Source: Candidatus Pacearchaeota archaeon (lineage in GTDB: Archaea > Nanobdellota > Nanobdellia > Pacearchaeales > GW2011-AR1). Taken from it: DNA of 60,553 nucleotides. The stretch covers positions 1 through 60,553 of the forward strand of contig JACOYL010000010.1 of assembly GCA_016181895.1 (NCBI GenBank), read 5' to 3'. Position numbers and translations under genes: made by a program. Shown here one piece after another: positions 2,871 through 18,644 of the stretch (position 1 is the first letter of the stretch; each line of letters begins with the position of its first letter). The notes beneath the pieces were generated by a model that had not been told where the DNA came from, searched no databases, and saw nothing but the letters and a program-made list of their open reading frames with translations.

Positions 2871-3695
2871 TCATCGTAAATAACCCGCATTTCTAAGATT
2901 TCTTTTAATTCTTTTTTCACTATTATCTTTTTCAGGAACAAATTTTGTTCCGATGACGGCTTCATAAAATCTCGCATATCTTGAGAATAATTCTGATTTT
3001 ACATCCTCTGGAATTTCAGGAATTGCTCCGTTTCCTGAGTATCCTCTTTCTTTTAGCCACGTCCTCAAAAATTCCTTGTCATATTGTCCTTTTGTCCTTG
3101 AAGAATCCGGTGTATGAATTTCATCTATAAGAACTAATTTTCCGTCGGCACCTCTAGCAAATTCATATTTGGTGTCCAAGAGCGTGAATTCTTCGCCTTT
3201 GCTCAGTGTTAAATTTTTTCCAAAATTAAACAATTCAAGGGCTTTGTATTTGATTTCTTCGTATTCTTTTTCCGTCAATACCCCCGTCCCAATAATTTCT
3301 TCTTTGGTTATTGGTTGGTCGTGAAAACCTTTTGCGGCTTTTGTAGTTGGGGTTACAATCGGCGTTTCAATTTCTTTCCAAGAATTATCTGGCCTTCTTA
3401 TGTGTCCCCTTACAATAATTTCCAAAGGGATGGGATTGCATCTTTTAACGACTAAAGTGTTTGGGTCTGGAACTTCAATTAAATGATTTTGAATTATGTG
3501 TTCTGTTTCTCCAAACCAAAAAGCCGAGAGTTGATTTAAAATTTGCCCTTTGCAAGGAATTGTGCCAAGCACAACATCAAATGCGGAAATCCTGTCTGTG
3601 GTAATCATGATAATTTTATCTTCCAGAAAATAAGAGTCTCTCACTTTCCCTTCGTGTTTTTTTCCAATATCTAAATTTGTTTTTTCAAGATTCAT
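2871..3695 (-). CDS. purC: SAICAR synthase (compact form)
   Basis: GKVRD, TDRISAFD, TPTTKA, DTKYEF, DEIHTPDSSR motifs; start reassigned to ATG 3695, overlapping the lhr stop. Confidence 0.9.
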   Translation of the reverse strand: MNLEKTNLDIGKKHEGKVRDSYFLEDKIIMITTDRISAFDVVLGTIPCKGQILNQLSAFWFGETEHIIQNHLIEVPDPNTLVVKRCNPIPLEIIVRGHIRRPDNSWKEIETPIVTPTTKAAKGFHDQPITKEEIIGTGVLTEKEYEEIKYKALELFNFGKNLTLSKGEEFTLLDTKYEFARGADGKLVLIDEIHTPDSSRTKGQYDKEFLRTWLKERGYSGNGAIPEIPEDVKSELFSRYARFYEAVIGTKFVPEKDNSEKRIKRNLRNAGYLR

Positions 3696-6297
3696 CCTCA
3701 ACTCCCAATTTTCCAAACCATTTCTGCGCAATCACGCGAACATGCTCCTCGTGCATTCTCCTTAAAAAATCCTGCCTGTCTTCGATTCTTATCAAATCGC
3801 TGTATCCTTGAAGAATAAGATTTGACGCAAACGGGCTTGGAACTTCTGTTTCAATGATCTTTGTTTTTACTTTTCCTTCCTTAATCCAGGCCAGGACTTT
3901 TTTCGCGTTTTCAATGTCCATCAAATCCTCCAAAACCTCCCTTCTCGCCTCGCGCAAAATCGGAAATTCGTTTGTTATCTTTTTTACGGCGTGCAAAAGA
4001 AAATGACTTTTCATCTGCTGTTTTCCGACTGTTTTGCTTCTTCCCTTGTAATTTCTCAAAATCATCAAGGCCCTTGAAGCGCAGTGCCGGAATCTGCGAG
4101 TCAAGACGTCTGTTTTTTCAATTGCTTCATTTAAAATCTCCGGAAGATTCTCGGGAGTCAAATATTCCAAAGGCGTTTTTATCTGCAGTCTTTCTCCGGC
4201 TATGTAAAACCCATTATCATTGATTCCTATCTCAATGTCCCTTCCGCCAAGCCTTCCAATCAAAAATCCAAAAGCCCTTGACAAAACGTCATTTACTCTT
4301 CTTCCGTAAGCGCTGTGAAAAATAAGAAAGTTTTTTTGCGATTTGTATTTCTCGACAATCATCAAATCCTCATGGGGAATTTCCAAAAACCTGTGTTGCT
4401 CCTCGAAATAATTGTAAATCGTTTCAGCCGTGTGTTCTTTTACATAAAGATGCTTCATGATGAATTCAATTGTTTTTTTCTTCGGTTTTTCGGAATCCAA
4501 TTGCTCATGCATCAGTTTCCTGAATTTTAAAATTTCAAGCCCCGAATCAAAACTCAAAGGAAGCATTTCACTGAACCATGAGGGGATTGTCGGGGACAAA
4601 TGTTCTGCGCTGTTTACATAAAGATTCATTCCTTTTGTGTATCTGTAAATGTATTTTTTTCCTCCAAGAACAAAAACATCACCCCGTTTCATTCTTTCCA
4701 TGAAACTTTCGTCGATGAACCCGATTTGCTCGTCCGGATGGATTTTTACGGTAATGAAAGACTCGTCCGGAATCGTGCCGATGTTTGTCAAGTAAAGGAC
4801 ACGAGCCAATTTTCCCTTTTTTCCGATTTGCTTTGTTTCTTTGTCGTACCATATTTTTCCGTAAACGTTGTTTTTTTCAAGGGCATAATCTCCGGACAGA
4901 TAACTGATGACGTCAAGAAAATCGTTTCTCGTCAGTTTTGAATAACAATAGCTTTTTCTTGTCAATGCAAACAATTCATCAATGTCCCAGATTTTATAGA
5001 TTGCCATGCCGAAAATTTGCTGGCTCAAAACATCAAGGCAGTTTTTCGGAAAAGTGATTTTGTTTATTTTTCTTTCAATCATTTCTTTCTGTATTACACT
5101 ACACTCTACCAAGTCGTCCCTGTCTGTTACTATGAATCTTCCCTTTGCAGTGTCATGAAGTTTGTGCCCTGCTCTTCCAAGTCTTTGCAATGCCCTCGCC
5201 GAAGATTTTGGAGAGCCAATCATTATGACCAAATCAATATATCCTATGTCAATTCCCAATTCCAAACTCGTGGAGCAAACAACAACCTTCAATTTTCCCT
5301 GTCGCAATCTTTCCTCTATGTCAAACCTGTGGCTCTTGCTCAGCGAAGAGTGATGCGCCGCAATATTGTCGTCGCCGTATTCTGTTGGAAACCTGGATTT
5401 GAGATGATTCACAACCCTTTCCGTCGCAGAGCGCGTGTTCGTGAAAATCAATGTTGTCCTGTGTTTTTTCAGAAGAGCATCAAGGAGATTGTACAAATTC
5501 CCTGTGATTTCGGTGTCTTCAATCAAATCCTCTACAGGAGTTAAAACATCAATGTCTATTTTTTTGTCCAAAGGCACGCGGATAAATTTCACTTTTCTTT
5601 CTTTGCTTTCGCCAACCAAATATCGCGCAACCTCTTCCATCGGTTCTACTGTTGCTGAAAGCCCGATTTTTGCCGGAAATATTTTCGATACCTCATTCAA
5701 TCTTTCCAAAGTCAAGGAGAGATAAACACCCCTCTTGTTGTCCAATGCGTGAATCTCATCAACAATGCAAAATTCAACGGCTTTCATTTTCTCGACGAAA
5801 TTTTTTGATGTAAGAATTATTGCCAACGACTCAGGGGTTGTTACAAGAATGTGCGGCGCTTTTCTGAGCATTTTCGCCCTCTCGCTCGTCGTTGTATCTC
5901 CTGTTCTTAATCCAACACGAATTTGCTGAAGTTTTATTCCTTTTTTTTCCGCAAGCGCATATATTTCTTCCAAAGGCTCGACGAGGTTTTTGTGGATGTC
6001 ATTGCTCAATGCCTTCAAAGGACTTGTGTAAACCGCGTAAACTTTTTCCTCGAGCTTGTTTTCCTCGGCAAGAAAAACGAGATAATTCAGGATTGAAAGA
6101 AAAGCAGTGAGTGTTTTCGTCCCCCCTGTGGGAGCCGAGATTAAAATATTGTTCCTGTTCCAGATTTCATAAACCCCGTAAAGTTGAGTCAAGGAAAATT
6201 TATTGAATTTCGAAAAAAACCATTCTTTAACAAGAGGATGCAATATTTTCTTTGTCTCTGCGTTACCGTATTTTTTTCCTTCTGTTATTGTTGTCAT
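3685..6297 (-). CDS. lhr: ATP-dependent helicase Lhr (Lhr-core)
   Basis: APTGGTKT, PLKAL, DEIH, GLSAT, TSLELGIDIG, QRLGRAGH, IPSWFSE. Confidence 0.95.
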   Translation of the reverse strand: MTTITEGKKYGNAETKKILHPLVKEWFFSKFNKFSLTQLYGVYEIWNRNNILISAPTGGTKTLTAFLSILNYLVFLAEENKLEEKVYAVYTSPLKALSNDIHKNLVEPLEEIYALAEKKGIKLQQIRVGLRTGDTTTSERAKMLRKAPHILVTTPESLAIILTSKNFVEKMKAVEFCIVDEIHALDNKRGVYLSLTLERLNEVSKIFPAKIGLSATVEPMEEVARYLVGESKERKVKFIRVPLDKKIDIDVLTPVEDLIEDTEITGNLYNLLDALLKKHRTTLIFTNTRSATERVVNHLKSRFPTEYGDDNIAAHHSSLSKSHRFDIEERLRQGKLKVVVCSTSLELGIDIGYIDLVIMIGSPKSSARALQRLGRAGHKLHDTAKGRFIVTDRDDLVECSVIQKEMIERKINKITFPKNCLDVLSQQIFGMAIYKIWDIDELFALTRKSYCYSKLTRNDFLDVISYLSGDYALEKNNVYGKIWYDKETKQIGKKGKLARVLYLTNIGTIPDESFITVKIHPDEQIGFIDESFMERMKRGDVFVLGGKKYIYRYTKGMNLYVNSAEHLSPTIPSWFSEMLPLSFDSGLEILKFRKLMHEQLDSEKPKKKTIEFIMKHLYVKEHTAETIYNYFEEQHRFLEIPHEDLMIVEKYKSQKNFLIFHSAYGRRVNDVLSRAFGFLIGRLGGRDIEIGINDNGFYIAGERLQIKTPLEYLTPENLPEILNEAIEKTDVLTRRFRHCASRALMILRNYKGRSKTVGKQQMKSHFLLHAVKKITNEFPILREARREVLEDLMDIENAKKVLAWIKEGKVKTKIIETEVPSPFASNLILQGYSDLIRIEDRQDFLRRMHEEHVRVIAQKWFGKLGVEDES

Positions 6298-6737
6298 CTT
6301 CTTTGTATAAGTTTTAATAATTGACTAGCAAATTCATCACAAAATTTTTCTTCTTCAATATTTTTTGTGATTATACTTTGCTTAAGTAATTTTATTTTAC
6401 TCTTTCTATCATAAAAAAAAGAATGTCCTATTTCATGCGCAATCCGCATATATCTCTCTTCATTGGAATTTCCACTAACATAAGAATCTGCTAAAATCAT
6501 AAATTTATCATTATCGTAACCAGGAAAAAGTAATGCTTCAAATCCTCCATTAACCGCTTCCAATTTTGTTAGTTTTACATTAAATCTTCCTAATCCATAC
6601 ATCACTGCGAAAGCCTCTTCGGTTTCTAAATCTTTTAACCTACATGATTTGTAAACTAGGTCTGCAATTTCTCTAGCCCTTTCTAAAGAAGGAACTTGGG
6701 CAAGTTCAACTCTTGGCCATTCACTTGAAGTTGTCAT
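6294..6737 (-). CDS. ImmA/IrrE-family (DUF955) Zn metallopeptidase
   Basis: R..IAHEIGH and EE.FCDEFASQLL motifs; ATGA overlap with lhr. Confidence 0.8.
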   Translation of the reverse strand: MTTSSEWPRVELAQVPSLERAREIADLVYKSCRLKDLETEEAFAVMYGLGRFNVKLTKLEAVNGGFEALLFPGYDNDKFMILADSYVSGNSNEERYMRIAHEIGHSFFYDRKSKIKLLKQSIITKNIEEEKFCDEFASQLLKLIQRR

Positions 6738-6852
6738 ATTAGGATTTTCAGGATTTTGTTTAATAAACTATCTGTTGATTGCCTCTGCAAAAAACCACTC
6801 TGCAATAGTTATAAAACTTTAAATACTTCTTTCTTTCATAGATTAGGTTGAA

Positions 6853-6868
6853 ATACAATTTATAGTAA
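6853..6868. promoter_or_regulatory. NrdR box 1, overlapping a TTTATA TATA-like box
   Basis: ataCAAttTaTAGtaa resembles the acaCwAtATaTwGtgt consensus; 32 bp upstream of box 2. Confidence 0.65.
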
Positions 6869-6884
6869 TAAAAAGAGTGTGGAT

Positions 6885-6900
6885 ATACAACATATTGTAT
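6885..6900. promoter_or_regulatory. NrdR box 2
   Basis: ataCAAcATaTTGtat, inside a 22-bp palindrome GATATACAA-CATA-TTGTATATC (6882-6903), 13 nt before the nrdR ATG. Confidence 0.8.
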
Positions 6901-6913
6901 ATCGATTGAAACC

Positions 6914-7357
6914 ATGAATTGCCCATATTGCGGAAATACAAGTTTAAAGGTTACTGACAAGCGCCCTTATAACCGCGGAGAGGGGATAAGGCGAAGAAGA
7001 GAATGCCTGAAGTGCAGGAAAAGATTCACGACGCATGAAAAAATCGACCAGGGCGATTTTTACGTCATAAAAAAGGACAGTACTAGGGAAAAATTCAGCA
7101 GGGAAAAACTTGAACGCGGGGTTCAAAGGGCGTTTGAAAAGCGCCCGATTTCAAAGGAGCAGATTGAAAAAATGATAAACGAGGTTGAAGAGCAGTTGAG
7201 AAGAAAGGGAAAGAAGGAAATAAAGAGTTCTGTCATCGGGGAAATAATCATGAAGAAAATGAAAAAAATCGACAATGTGGCTTACATAAGGTTCGCCTCT
7301 GTTTACAGGAATTTTCAGGATGTTCAAGATTTTAAAAAAGAATTAAAGGAATTGTAA
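6914..7357 (+). CDS. nrdR: transcriptional repressor NrdR
   Basis: CPYC...[17 protein letters not shown] Zn ribbon plus ATP cone; AYIRFASVY. Confidence 0.95.
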
Positions 7358-7359
7358 AA

Positions 7360-8547
7360 ATGCTGCAGGAATTTGAAATACTCGACGATTGGGAAAAGGA
7401 AATTGTTTATGAAAAGCTTGACAAGGAAAAAGAAAAAACAATTGATTTGGAATTTGAAATCCTGGAAGAATGGGAAGAGGAATTGAATGACAGGTTGTAC
7501 GAGGAAAAACCTGTTTCTGCTTTGCAGGAATATGTTCCCGAGGTTTTTCACGAACAAAAAACTTTTCAAAGCGAGGAGGAACTTCAAAAAATAAGCCCCG
7601 ACAGGTTTGTTTTGTTTCCGATTGAAAACCACAAGATTTGGGAATTTTACAAAAAAGCGGAAGCCTCGTTTTGGACGACAGAGGAAATAGATTTGCATCA
7701 GGATTTGACAGACTGGAACAAATTGAACGAAAAAGAAAAGCATTTTCTCAAGCATGTTCTGGCTTTTTTTGCAGCCAGCGACGGAATCGTGACTGAGAAT
7801 TTGGCTGTGAATTTCATGAAAGACGTAACAAATCCCGAGGCAAGATGTTTCTACGGATTCCAAATTGCAATGGAAAACATTCACAGCGAAACCTATTCTC
7901 TTTTGATTGACACATACATAAGGGACAAGGAAGAGCAGGATTATCTTTTTAACGCGCTTGAAAACATTCCGGTAGTTAAGAAAAAAGGCGAGTGGGCTTT
8001 GAAATGGCTCAATGAAAAAAACACGACTTTCGCGGAAAGATTGATTGCCTTTGCCGCCGTCGAGGGAATTTTTTTCTCCGGAAGTTTTTGCTCGATTTTC
8101 TGGCTGAAAAAAAGAGGTTTGATGCCCGGCTTGAGTTTCAGCAATGAATTAATTTCCAGAGACGAAGGCATGCACTGCGATTTTGCGTGCCTGCTTCACA
8201 GCATGCTTAGAAATCCGACAAACGAAAAAAGAATAAAGGAAATAATCGACGAAGCCGTGAAAATAGAAAGGGAATTCGTCACTTCCGCCTTGCCTGTTGA
8301 TTTGATTGGAATGAACAACAAGCTCATGGCGCAATACATTGAATTCGTCGCCGACAGATTACTGGTTGCGTTGGGATGCACAAAAATTTATAATTCGTCA
8401 AATCCGTTTCCGTGGATGGAACTTATTTCCCTCGAAGGAAAAACAAACTTCTTCGAAAAAAGGGTTTCAGACTATCAAAAAGCAGGAGTGATGGAAAAAA
8501 ACAAGGAGGTGTCTGTGAAGGTATTTCGCCTGGACGAGAGTTTTTGA
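7360..8547 (+). CDS. nrdB: class Ia ribonucleotide reductase beta subunit with acidic N-terminal extension
   Basis: [17 protein letters not shown] (radical Tyr), [23 protein letters not shown]. Confidence 0.95.
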
Positions 8548-8553
8548 TTAAAA

Positions 8554-8859
8554 ATGGAAATAAAAGAAACACAAGAAAAAGTGGATAAAATAATAAAACA
8601 GTATGGAGGATATTGGGAACCTCTATCAATGCTGGCTCGACTTGTAGAAGAAGTTGGGGAATTGTCCCGAGAACTGAACATAGAATATGGAGGCAAAAAA
8701 AAGAAATCTGAATCAGATGGAAGAGAAATCCAAAAAGAATTAGCAGATATAACATTCACTATTCTAGCAATTGCAAATGCACTTAAAATTGATTTAAATA
8801 AAGAAATAAATGAAAAAATAGAAAAAGATTTGCAAAGAAACAGGGGGATTTATTATTAA
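8554..8859 (+). CDS. MazG-like nucleotide pyrophosphohydrolase
   Basis: [13 protein letters not shown]...ELADI. Confidence 0.9.
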
Positions 8860-8860
8860 A

Positions 8861-11308
8861 ATGACAATGCAAGTTATAAAGCGGGACGGAAGGAAGGAAC
8901 CAGTGAGTTTCGACAAGGTTTTAGAAAGAGTTCAAAGACTTTGCGACGGTTTGAACAGGCAATTTGTGGATCCTTCAGAGATAGCGAAAAAAGTCATCGA
9001 GGGGATTTATGACGGAGTCACGACATCTGAATTGGACGAACTCGCGGCGGAAACAGCGGCGAGTTTGAGCACCGTTCATCCCGATTATTTGAAGCTTGCG
9101 GCGCGGATTTCAATAAGCAATCTTCAAAAACAAACGAGCAATTCCTTCTCGGAAACAGTTGACATTCTTTACAATTATGTGCATCCTGAAACCGGAAAAC
9201 AGGCGGGAATGATTGGCGACGGAACCTACAAGGCTGTGATGGAAAACAAGGATTTGCTCGACGGAGTTATCGATTACAAGAGGGATTACAATTACGATTA
9301 TTTCGGATTCAAAACTCTTGAAAGGGCGTATCTTTTGAAAGTCAACGGAAAAGTCGTTGAAAGGCCGCAGCATTTGCTTATGCGCGTCGCGGTTGGAATC
9401 TGGGGAAGCGACATACAAAACGTGATTAAATCCTATGAATTGTTCAGCCAGGGATATTTCACGCATGCGACGCCGACATTGTTCAACTCCGGAACAAAAA
9501 GGCCGCAGTTGTCAAGCTGTTTCCTTGTTGCAATGAAAAGCGACAGCATAGACGGAATTTATGAAACACTGAAAAACATAGCCGTGATTTCAAAATATGC
9601 CGGAGGGATTGGAGTTCACATGCACAACATTCGCTCAAGCGGTTCATACATAAGGGGAAGCAACGGAATGAGCAACGGATTGGTTCCGATGCTTCGCGTT
9701 TACAACGCAACGGCAAGATATGTAGATCAGGGAGGAGGAAAAAGAAAAGGCGCGTTCGCCGTTTATTTGGAGCCGTGGCATTCTGATATTTTTGAATTTC
9801 TTGATTTGAGAAAAAACACGGGAAGCGAGGAGCTCAGGGCCAGGGATTTGTTTTATGCTCTTTGGATTCCGGATTTGTTCATGAAAAGAGTCGAGGAAAA
9901 CGGCAACTGGAGTTTATTCTGTCCTGATGAATCCCCCGGATTGTCGGATGTTTACGGAATTGAATTTGAAAGATTGTACTTGAAATACGAATCTGAAAAA
10001 AAAGCGAGAAAAATTGTAAAAGCCAGGGAGCTATGGGCGAAAATCGTCGAGAGCCAGATAGAAACTGGAAATCCCTACATGCTCTACAAGGATTCTGTAA
10101 ACAGAAAATCAAACCAGAAAAATCTCGGGACGATAAAATCCTCGAATCTTTGCACAGAAATTGTTGAATACACAGACTCCGATGAAACAGCTGTCTGCAA
10201 TCTTGCCTCCATTGCCTTGAATAAATTCGTAAGGGAAGACAGGAGTTTTGATTACAAGGACCTTTATGAAGTTGCCTATCAAGTCACGAAAAATCTCAAC
10301 AGGATTATCGACGTGAATCACTATCCGATTCCGGAGGCAAGGAAATCGAATCTCAGGCACAGACCCATAGGAATCGGAGTCCAGGGATTGGCAAACGCGT
10401 TTGCATTAATGAGGTTTCCCTTTGCATCGGACGAGGCAAAGGAAATCAATAAAAAAATCTTTGAAACAATTTACTTTGCCGCTTTGACCGCAAGCAAGGA
10501 CCTGGCAAAAACCGAAGGCACTTATGAAACTTTCCAAGGCTCTCCCGCTTCAGAGGGAATTCTGCAGTTTGACATGTGGAACGCAAAGCCGAGCAACATG
10601 TGGCCCTGGAATTCTTTAAGAGAGGAAATAAAAAAATACGGTTTGAGAAACAGCCTTCTTGTGGCTCCGATGCCCACTGCATCGACTTCGCAAATTCTCG
10701 GAAACAACGAATGCTTCGAGCCTTTCACGTCAAACATCTATACAAGAAGAACGCTTTCAGGAGAATTCATAATGATAAACAAATATCTCGTCGAGGATTT
10801 GATAAAACTCGGATTGTGGAACAACGAAATAAAAAACAAGATAATTTCCGGAAACGGAAGCATACAAAACATCCAGGAAATACCGAAAGAAATAAAAGAA
10901 TTGTACAGGACTGTTTGGGAAATAAAACAGAAGGACTTGATTGACATGGCTGCCGATCGCGGGGCTTTCATAGATCAAAGCCAGTCATTGAACATCTGGA
11001 TGAAGGATCCGACTTTTGCAAAAATCACAAGCATGCATTTTTACGGCTGGAAAAAAGGACTGAAAACAGGTATGTATTATTTGAGGACAAAGGCGGCGTC
11101 GCAGGCGATACAATTCACAGTCGACAAGTTTTTGGAAAAAACTTCCGAGACAAAAATAATTCCTGAAAATAAGTTGGATTCTTTCCCTAACAAATCCTTG
11201 AATGATTTCACGGGGCAAAACACAACGGAGAAAAATTCCTTGGAAAAAAAAGACAATGCATTTTGCACCTTGGATAATCCTGAAGATTGCGAGGCTTGCA
11301 GCAGCTGA
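8861..11308 (+). CDS. nrdA: class Ia ribonucleotide reductase alpha subunit (eukaryote-like subtype)
   Basis: ATP cone, [34 protein letters not shown]-terminal CEAC. Confidence 0.97.
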
Positions 11309-11329
11309 AAAACCGAGGAAAATTCGAAA

Positions 11330-11482
11330 ATGAAAAATGAATTTGATGAGGAAATTGATTTAACAAGAGAAGAAATTGATGGGTTGGAAGAAACAACTGA
11401 ATCTTTAAGAAATTATGGTAAATTTCATTTTAATTTTGATAAAAAGGATATTATAATTAATTGCAGGGGGTTGCAAATTTAA
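11330..11482 (+). CDS. small acidic hypothetical protein (50 aa)
   Basis: Hand translation MKNEFDEEIDLTREEIDGLEETTESLRNYGKFHFNFDKKDIIINCRGLQI; fills the nrdA-nrdD gap. Confidence 0.5.
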   Translation: MKNEFDEEIDLTREEIDGLEETTESLRNYGKFHFNFDKKDIIINCRGLQI

Positions 11483-11517
11483 GGAATTAAATTTTAAAAT
11501 AAACAAAGAAAATAAAA

Positions 11518-13560
11518 ATGGTGAAAAAAGTAAGAAAAAGGGATGGAAGCGTCGTGCTTTTCGACGGCAACAAAATCACGGAAGCAATTTGGAAAGCCGC
11601 GAAAGCAGTTGGGGGAAAAGACAGGGAAAGGGCGGAAAATGTTTCAGGTTTGGTTGTAAAAGAACTGGAAAAGAAACACGGGGAAAACGGAATTCCCGGA
11701 GTCGAGGAAATCCAGGACATCGTGGAAAAAATGCTGATAGAAGAGGGGCATGCAAAAACCGCGAAGGCTTACATATTGTACAGAAAAAGCCACGAGGAAT
11801 TGAGGAGCATAAAGGAATTGTTCGACACGATTGAAGTCGTCGAGGATTACATCGGATTGAACGACTGGATGATAAAGGAAAATTCCAACATGGGTTTCTC
11901 TCTGCAGGGATTGAACAATTACATAACGACGAAAATAATCACGAATTACTGGATCAGGAGAATTTATCCGGAAGTGATAAGAAAAGCCCACGAAAACGTC
12001 GACTTGCATCTGCATGATTTGGGAACCCTTGGAGCGTATTGCGTCGGCTGGGATTTGAAGGACTTGCTTACAATCGGATTCAAGGGAGTTCCGGGAAAAG
12101 TCGAGTCAAAACCCGCAAAACATTTGAGGTCTGCTCTCGGGCAGGTTGTGAATTTTTTCTACACGCTTCAAGGAGAAACCGCGGGAGCGCAGGCATTTTC
12201 AAATTTTGACACGCTTCTCGCTCCCTTTGTAAGATACGACGATTTGAATTACCCGCAAATAAAACAGGCGATGCAGGAATTTCTTTTCAATTTGGCTGTT
12301 CCCACAAGAGTCGGATTTCAAACGCCGTTCACAAACATAACTTTGGACTTGAAAGTTCCGGAATACATGAAAGACGAACCGGTAATCATCGGAGGGGAAA
12401 TGAAAAAGGAAACCTACAAAGAATTCCAAGAAGAGATGAACATGCTCAACAAGGCATTTGCGGAAATCATGATTGATGGCGACGCCGCCGGAAGGCCTTT
12501 TACTTTTCCGATTCCGACGTACAACATAACAAAAGATTTCGATTGGGACAATCCTTCCTATGAACCCATATGGGAAATGACTGCAAAATACGGAATCCCT
12601 TATTTTTCAAATTTCATCAATTCGGACATGAAACCAGAGGATGCAAGAAGCATGTGCTGCCGTCTCAGATTGGATCAAACGGAATTGAGAAAAAGGGGCG
12701 GAGGGCTTTTTGGAGCGAATCCGCAAACAGGTTCCATAGGCGTTGTCACGATAAACATGGCGAGAATCGGATTCACTTCCGGAGATGAGGAAGAATTTTT
12801 CAAAAAACTCAACGAGCTGATGGAGCTTGCAAAGGAAAGCTTGGAAATAAAAAGAAAAGCGCTTGAAAAATTCACAGACTTAGGACTTTACCCCTATTCG
12901 AAATTTTATTTGAGCAACATCAAAAAAAGATTCAACGGATACTGGAAAAATCATTTTGCCACGATAGGATTGCTGGGAATGAACGAGGCAATAGTGAATT
13001 TCATGCCGGGAGAAAACATCGCCTCTGAAAAAGGAAGAAATTTTGCCTTGAGGGTTTTGGATTTCATGAGAAAAAAACTCGAGGAATATCAGGAAGAAAC
13101 CGGCAACATATACAATCTGGAAGCAACTCCCGGAGAGGGAACAACTTATCGCTTCGCCAAGAACGACAAGAAAAGATTCGGAAGAATTATCGTCGCCAAC
13201 GAACACGCTGTAAAAAACGGGGGAAATCCCTATTACACTAATTCAACCCATCTTCCTGTAAATTACATGGACGACGTTTTTGAGTCCCTTGAACTGCAGG
13301 ACGATTTGCAGACAAAGTACACGGGAGGAACGGTTTTGCACATTTTTATAGGGGAAAAACTTGAAAAAAACGACGTCAAGATTTTAATCAAAAAAATCGC
13401 GGAAAATTTCAGGCTTCCTTATTTTACCCTGACGCCGACATTTTCCATTTGCCCGAATCACGGTTATCTTGCCGGAGACCACGAGTATTGTCCGAAATGC
13501 GACGAGAAAATCGGTTATCTTGAAAAAGAATTAAACTTGAAAATAAAACAGGGAGGTTAA
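11518..13560 (+). CDS. nrdD: class III anaerobic ribonucleotide reductase, large part (lacks glycyl-radical loop)
   Basis: ATP cone, HLHDL, AYCVGW, SMCCRL, LEATPGE, KYTGGT, CxxH...CxxC; ends without RxxGY. Confidence 0.95.
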   Translation: MVKKVRKRDGSVVLFDGNKITEAIWKAAKAVGGKDRERAENVSGLVVKELEKKHGENGIPGVEEIQDIVEKMLIEEGHAKTAKAYILYRKSHEELRSIKELFDTIEVVEDYIGLNDWMIKENSNMGFSLQGLNNYITTKIITNYWIRRIYPEVIRKAHENVDLHLHDLGTLGAYCVGWDLKDLLTIGFKGVPGKVESKPAKHLRSALGQVVNFFYTLQGETAGAQAFSNFDTLLAPFVRYDDLNYPQIKQAMQEFLFNLAVPTRVGFQTPFTNITLDLKVPEYMKDEPVIIGGEMKKETYKEFQEEMNMLNKAFAEIMIDGDAAGRPFTFPIPTYNITKDFDWDNPSYEPIWEMTAKYGIPYFSNFINSDMKPEDARSMCCRLRLDQTELRKRGGGLFGANPQTGSIGVVTINMARIGFTSGDEEEFFKKLNELMELAKESLEIKRKALEKFTDLGLYPYSKFYLSNIKKRFNGYWKNHFATIGLLGMNEAIVNFMPGENIASEKGRNFALRVLDFMRKKLEEYQEETGNIYNLEATPGEGTTYRFAKNDKKRFGRIIVANEHAVKNGGNPYYTNSTHLPVNYMDDVFESLELQDDLQTKYTGGTVLHIFIGEKLEKNDVKILIKKIAENFRLPYFTLTPTFSICPNHGYLAGDHEYCPKCDEKIGYLEKELNLKIKQGG

Positions 13561-18528: not shown

Positions 18529-18644
18529 TGGCCCCGATGGGATTTGAACCCACGACACCTGGATATCTTCGCACCTGTGCGAATCTTGTCATGTTCCGTG
18601 ATGCGTAAAAGTCCAGTGCTCTGACCAAGCTGAGCTACGGAGCC
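18529..18644 (-). tRNA. tRNA-Lys(UUU) with a 41-nt intron (18565-18605)
   Basis: GGCTCCG/CGGGGCC acceptor, CTGGA/TCCAG anticodon stem, TTT anticodon, GTTCAAATC; BHB helix CUUU:GAAG and intron stem GCATC:GGTGC. Confidence 0.95.

Follow-up and report, generated by a model that had tools for sequence, protein, structure and literature searches.

NrdR is found in 77% of bacterial and 22% of archaeal genomes (PMC13584703), and a small number of archaeal RNRs have been described as being under its control (PMC12051234). Its published operator consists of two 16-bp partial palindromes with conserved C4, A6, A8, T9, T11, and G13, which are separated by a linker of 15-16 bp (PMC13584703). In S. coelicolor NrdR, D15 and R17 provide DNA specificity, and R26-29 and R37 make backbone contacts (PMC9110341). 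Bacterial NrdR loaded with ATP and dATP forms a tetramer that binds both boxes and bends the DNA sharply, whereas the ATP-only form is unbound (PMC9110341; PMC12051234). The occurrence of NrdR in archaea and its link to RNR operons are already published, and the locus described here leaves the current picture of NrdR unchanged.

Among the archaeal repressors whose binding after BRE/TATA keeps RNAP from being recruited are MDR1, LrpA, Phr, and NrpR, the last with two operators in Methanococcus maripaludis. Such binding across the start, with steric hindrance of RNAP recruitment, has been described as common among archaeal repressors (PMC6746942). In the literature that we searched, we found no paper joining NrdR and DPANN, no description of NrdR box placement on an archaeal promoter, and no report of nucleotide-dependent DNA binding by an archaeal NrdR.

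The locus lies in a window of 60,553 nucleotides (the whole stretch of DNA that was analyzed, from a Candidatus Pacearchaeota archaeon), in which nrdR is preceded by an intergenic region of 176 bp (6738-6913) and followed by RNR genes.

6914..7357, + strand: nrdR, 147 aa, ATG at 6914, with Zn ribbon and ATP-cone
7360..8547, + strand: nrdB, class I RNR small subunit (PF00268, 390.8 bits), starting 2 nt past the nrdR stop
8554..8859, + strand: MazG-like nucleotide pyrophosphohydrolase (PF03819, 35 bits)
8861..11308, + strand: nrdA, class I RNR large subunit with ATP-cone (TIGR02506, 737.7 bits; PF02867, PF00317, and PF03477)
11518..13560, + strand: nrdD, class III RNR (NF006126, 1047.8 bits), 209 bp past nrdA

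The product of nrdR is a full NrdR, which covers model positions 1-147 of 147 in TIGR00244 and scores 193.5 bits against an equivalog cut-off of 124.65. Its N-terminal Zn ribbon (PF22811, Zn_ribbon_NrdR, 63.2 bits) contains two CxxC motifs, in which the zinc cysteines C3, C6, C31, and C34 are all kept as judged from the translation, and is followed by an ATP-cone at residues 50-136 (PF03477, 81.3 bits). The protein aligns over its full length with the E. coli NrdR structure 9fvr (E 4.5e-43). In S. coelicolor numbering, D15, R17, R26-R29, and R37 are all kept, and position 12 is a Lys, not an Arg. An earlier note on this DNA had named the protein a bacterial-type NrdR repressor, and the family score bears this out.

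Gaps of only 1-6 nt run along nrdR-nrdB-mazG-nrdA. Neither reading of the 209-bp nrdA-nrdD gap (11309-11517) nor a genome-wide scan for box pairs revealed NrdR boxes belonging to nrdD itself, and because this gene lies 209 bp past nrdA without boxes of its own, it may be co-transcribed with the four genes upstream. The same gap holds a small ORF starting at 11331, and the only TATA-like sequence in it is a weak run, TTTAAAAT, at 11493, 25 bp before the nrdD ATG. On the other side of the nrdR intergenic region is a divergent ORF of 147 aa (6294-6737, - strand), for which no Pfam or NCBIfam family was found and which overlaps the start of an Lhr-type helicase gene (3685-6297) by 4 nt.

The host genome (736 kb, 24 contigs) encodes a two-repeat TBP, and in a profile search TBP family matches were restricted to the archaeal ones among the control genomes. 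The host is an archaeon (DPANN), and close relatives of its NrdR come from MAGs labelled Candidatus Woesearchaeota or Pacearchaeota. Elsewhere in the window, a 116-nt tRNA (18529-18644, - strand), which was found by Rfam and not by ARAGORN, probably contains an intron, as is usual in archaea.

To place the nrdR promoter, we used a model drawn from the host itself. In the host genome, a strict TATA motif (TTTAWAWA) occurs 24-33 bp upstream of 153 ORF starts, and in 114 of these it begins exactly 29 bp upstream of the ATG and is preceded by an A-rich BRE; most host transcripts are therefore predicted to be leaderless, as is the transcriptome at large. We also trained a BRE/TATA matrix on the host's own ORF starts, with no motif set beforehand and over a fixed stretch from -37 to -20; among 911 candidate ORF starts, it detects a good promoter at 271. 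A - strand match of this matrix at 6766 (TATA 6759-6766) serves as an internal check of the model, since it predicts a start that coincides exactly with the divergent gene's ATG at 6737. Within the nrdR intergenic region the only strong + strand match, at 12.3 bits, is TTTAAATA at 6818-6825. Given this TATA box and the host's 29-bp rule, the transcription start is predicted near 6847.

6811..6825, + strand: nrdR core promoter, with BRE at 6811-6817 (ATAAAAC) and TATA box TTTAAATA at 6818-6825
6845..6849, about 6847, + strand: predicted transcription start (6818 + 29 = 6847)

The nrdR ATG would thus fall at about +68, and the operon is predicted to be an exception to the leaderless rule, with a leader of about 67 nt in which no clear Shine-Dalgarno sequence precedes the ATG. 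Just upstream of the BRE, at 6794-6811, is the sequence ACCACT-N8-ATAGTTA, which is conserved in several genera. It resembles an NrdR box, except that the distance from C to G exceeds that of a box by 1 bp; a degenerate "box 0" and a binding site for some other factor are both conceivable.

Between the predicted start and the ATG lie two NrdR boxes whose starts are 32 bp apart, the operator ending 13 bp before the nrdR ATG at 6914.

6853..6868, unstranded: NrdR box 1, ATACAATTTATAGTAA, 14.8-15.3 bits, 5/6 conserved positions (T at position 8), about +7 to +22 of the predicted start
6869..6884, + strand: linker, TAAAAAGAGTGTGGAT, 16 bp, purine-rich and Shine-Dalgarno-like
6885..6900, unstranded: NrdR box 2, ATACAACATATTGTAT, 21.5-22.2 bits, 6/6 conserved positions, about +39 to +54 of the predicted start

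The classical consensus ACACWATATATWGTGT, allowing up to 2 mismatches, has no match in the host genome. Boxes of this lineage, unlike that consensus, carry T/A at positions 2 and 15, and we therefore used a weight matrix built from relatives, all of them outside the window's own genus. With this matrix, box 2 (21.5 bits) and box 1 (14.8 bits) are the two best matches in the whole 736-kb genome and form its only pair spaced 30-33 bp; the scan found no second tandem pair anywhere in that genome that would point to other regulon members. Single matches of at least 15 bits occur by chance 0-5 times per shuffled genome, and the case for the operator therefore rests on the pair, its position, and its conservation. 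Both 16-mers that the earlier note had reported 32 bp apart, directly before nrdR and the RNR operon, are thus read at 6853-6868 and 6885-6900, in front of an nrdR gene that heads nrdR-nrdB-mazG-nrdA.

Conservation was assessed in 61 related genomes, 49 of which encode NrdR, and in 48 nrdR loci (the window's own and 47 related ones). In each of the 47 related loci, a tandem pair with a spacing of 30-32 bp precedes nrdR, and RNR genes come after it. The earlier note had named boxes not conserved before orthologues as an outcome that would refute it, and this test does not refute it. The linker is 16 bp long in 32 of the 48 loci, 15 bp in 14, and 14 bp in 2. C4 and G13 are kept in 175/176 half-sites, and A6 and T11 in 173/176. 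A strict tandem pattern, ACWANNNNTWGT-N19-20-ACWANNNNTWGT, has exactly one match in each of 26 of the 61 related genomes (about 42 Mb in total), in every case beside nrdR, whereas a reversed control pattern has 2 matches in the same genomes. Strict matches occur in 26/49 related genomes with NrdR and in 0/12 without it. These findings confirm that the tandem NrdR operator is real and strongly conserved.

The association extends beyond the close relatives. In a phylum-wide sample of 201 genomes, 155 encode NrdR and 50 have the strict pattern, namely 48 of the 155 with NrdR vs 2 of the 46 without. Of 18 fetched phylum matches that are away from nrdR, about 15 immediately precede an RNR gene (class II-like, class I, or class III); of the others, two look like chance and one has an RNR-like gene about 2 kb away. 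In this phylum, NrdR is the usual case and not a rarity. The statement that NrdR is uncommon in archaea, also made earlier, agrees with the literature overall ("rare," or 22% of genomes), but does not hold here. A transfer, if there was one, would be old within the phylum, not recent. As judged from sequence, an entire archaeal phylum shares a classical NrdR regulon, which in the window's genome consists of a single operon.

Tandem boxes precede nrdD-nrdG at two loci, L085 (G168) and L086 (G235), in genomes where no nrdR was found at E <= 1e-20; these are either orphan operators or cases in which the assembly missed nrdR. A related genus has an in-frame fusion of NrdR to the class III reductase (L091, 765-3242, - strand; also L092), in a protein of 825 aa with Zn_ribbon_NrdR, two ATP-cones, and NRDD. 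In seven genomes of the phylum sample, NrdR lies inside open frames of 802-875 aa.

The position of the operator relative to the promoter falls into a few layouts among the 48 loci, and that of the window is the commonest.

Class A: strict TATA 31-37 bp before box 1, 31/48 loci
Class B: strict TATA 22-26 bp before box 1, 5/48 loci
Class C: strict TATA 11-16 bp before box 1, 5/48 loci
Class D: strict TATA inside the linker, 3/48 loci
Other: strict TATA lacking within range or at a different distance, 4/48 loci

Named Pacearchaeota and Woesearchaeota MAGs show the same layout of boxes and TATA. Bacterial nrdR loci of Dehalococcoidales have the boxes and lack such a TATA box. In every layout seen, the stretch occupied by the archaeal initiation complex contains or adjoins one or both boxes. 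The earlier note had set the boxes over TATA and start, with the second box near the start site; this placement is not supported, as both boxes are downstream of the start predicted at about 6847.

We consider that the boxes probably serve this DPANN archaeon as a functional operator, at which RNAP would be blocked on a BRE/TATA promoter and through which the NrdR regulon would be autoregulated. The regulon would be one operon, nrdR-nrdB-mazG-nrdA, possibly continuing into nrdD, and transcription would proceed from the canonical archaeal BRE/TATA at 6811-6825 with a start near 6847. By analogy with bacteria, we infer that an NrdR tetramer loaded with dATP and ATP would bind box 1 and box 2 together and bend the DNA sharply. 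Since box 1 is within the stretch that archaeal RNAP must occupy, NrdR would block recruitment or promoter escape by steric hindrance, TBP/TFB presumably still being able to bind the TATA box. When dATP falls and ATP alone is bound, NrdR would come off its boxes, allowing expression of the whole operon with nrdR among its genes, so that repression would feed back on nrdR itself. The footprint expected for the polymerase takes in no more than about 14 bp of box 1, and a block after recruitment is therefore equally possible as the affected step.

This last point leads to a reading with the same operator and promoter, in which NrdR acts after recruitment, as a roadblock to escape or early elongation within the 67-nt leader. 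It would suit the commonest layout (31/48 loci), in which both boxes lie wholly downstream of the predicted start, and NrdR is known to bend DNA sharply, across about 48 bp (PMC9110341). However, in classes B, C, and D (13/48), box 1 falls between TATA and start, or the TATA lies in the linker, and such placements are easier to reconcile with NrdR hindering the initiation complex from assembling than with a roadblock alone. We regard this reading as unlikely overall, although it has a modest chance of being right.

The linker offers a further possibility. An A-run followed by GRG, or a Shine-Dalgarno-like motif, is present in 22 of the 48 linkers vs 4.2% of control 16-mers, and linkers of bacterial NrdR operators are reported as unconserved (PMC13584703). 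In the window the motif lies at 6870-6879; AAAGAGG, and even GGAGGTGAT, are found among the linkers of L007-L060. We also considered a role for it in ribosome binding at an upstream ORF that is coupled to nrdR, and rejected this because any such ORF is present in only 10/48 loci and the ORFs are inconsistent. Combined with a TATA-to-box-1 distance that stays at 31-37 bp across many genera, the conserved purine-rich linker suggests that, in these DPANN archaea with their mostly leaderless mRNAs, control by NrdR may have become fitted to the archaeal machinery and was not just carried over. The operon would then have gained a rare leader of about 67 nt with the operator as its only content, and the linker motif could be a contact with the initiation complex, a site for a second factor, or an element of RNA-level control. 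We hold this idea very tentatively and think it doubtful.

It is improbable that the promoter lies within the operator itself. According to the earlier note, box 1 overlaps a TTTATA that acts as the promoter TATA. That hexamer is indeed within box 1, at 6859-6864, but the role assigned to it did not stand up, being outscored by the TATA box at 6818 (12.3 bits). Were it the TATA box, transcription would start in box 2 (about 6888), and NrdR would compete with TBP/TFB. The octamer TTTATAGT does match the host TTTAWAWA consensus at 6/8 bases, and a strict TATA in the linker is found in the 3/48 loci of class D, which belong to a few order-level relatives. On the other hand, no window using the box 1 TTTATA as TATA is among the eight best + strand matches of the matrix, the lowest of which, a neighboring window with its TATA start at 6865, scores 0.1 bits. 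In addition, the base 3 bp before this TTTATA is a C, whereas 127/153 host promoters have an A there. Among relatives, the center of box 1 varies (TTTGTA, CTGATA, TAATCT, and TTTGGT), whereas the upstream TATA box TTTAAATA is kept at a fixed distance. For the window, the host-trained promoter matrix led us to reject a TATA in box 1 or in the linker. The distance from the first base of box 2 to the nrdR ATG is exactly 29 bp, which is the TATA position for a leaderless transcript, but as a TATA box for such a transcript of nrdR it was rejected, as its sequence misfits the promoter model. Its position stands as a caveat to the start predicted near 6847, as does the long leader in a mostly leaderless genome.

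Nor do the palindromes look like elements that act mainly as hairpins in the 5' leader RNA, affecting stability or translation, with NrdR binding secondary or absent. Both boxes would be transcribed from the predicted start and would fold as hairpins, and the conserved Shine-Dalgarno-like motif of the linker lies between them. However, it is base identity that is conserved and not pairing, as the counts for C4/G13 (175/176) and A6/T11 (173/176) indicate, and the boxes fit the bacterial DNA consensus position by position. Moreover, the boxes co-occur with the nrdR gene, in some relatives they are upstream of the predicted start, and coupling to an upstream ORF failed as described above. All of this makes an RNA role of this kind very improbable.

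Chance resemblance or a decayed, functionless relic is effectively refuted, because although single boxes of at least 15 bits do turn up in shuffled genomes, the tandem pair is unique in its genome, one is carried by each of the related loci, and every strict match in the 61 genomes is beside nrdR.

The reading that we favor, a working NrdR operator on a BRE/TATA promoter, adds a host-specific 29-bp rule and the box coordinates that result from it, classes of operator placement, and a conserved purine-rich linker. The locus shows that NrdR and its operator function, or are in any case strictly maintained, on an archaeal TBP/TFB promoter across a whole DPANN phylum. It offers a template with defined geometry for how a repressor, which in the literature that we read has been studied only in bacteria, would interfere with archaeal initiation. 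Annotation of the host's dNTP-supply cluster gains a fixed promoter, a predicted start, and a defined regulon.

Compared with the nrdRJ operon of S. coelicolor (7P3F; PMC9110341), the locus shares an nrdR gene that comes first in the RNR operon and is autoregulated (here by inference). The operator is likewise composed of two 16-bp partial palindromes with a 15-16-bp linker, the boxes are at or over the transcription start, and NrdR has the same Zn ribbon and ATP-cone, with D15/R17 and the arginine cluster kept. In contrast to the sigma-70 -35/-10 promoter of S. coelicolor, the promoter here is an archaeal BRE/TATA served by TBP, TFB, and archaeal RNAP, and the boxes are wholly after the predicted start. 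The RNR genes downstream are of class I and class III here and of class II there, and the lineage consensus, AyACAAnATnTTGTrT, and the purine-rich linker also set the operator apart.

The haloarchaeal operons (Lundin et al. 2010, PMC3019208) resemble the window in having the gene order nrdR-nrdB-nrdA in an archaeon and a class I RNR, rare in archaea, linked to NrdR. They were interpreted as having been transferred recently from halophilic bacteria, and some lie on plasmids, whereas NrdR here is old, being present in 155/201 genomes. As for YtrA of Sulfolobus acidocaldarius (PMC6746942), the operator comes after the TATA box and either spans the start or lies just past it, and like archaeal repressors of this kind NrdR would be metabolite-responsive and is encoded in its own target operon. 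Those repressors have HTH or wHTH folds, whereas NrdR combines a Zn ribbon with an ATP-cone and, unlike them, would act as a tetramer that needs both boxes and wraps the DNA.
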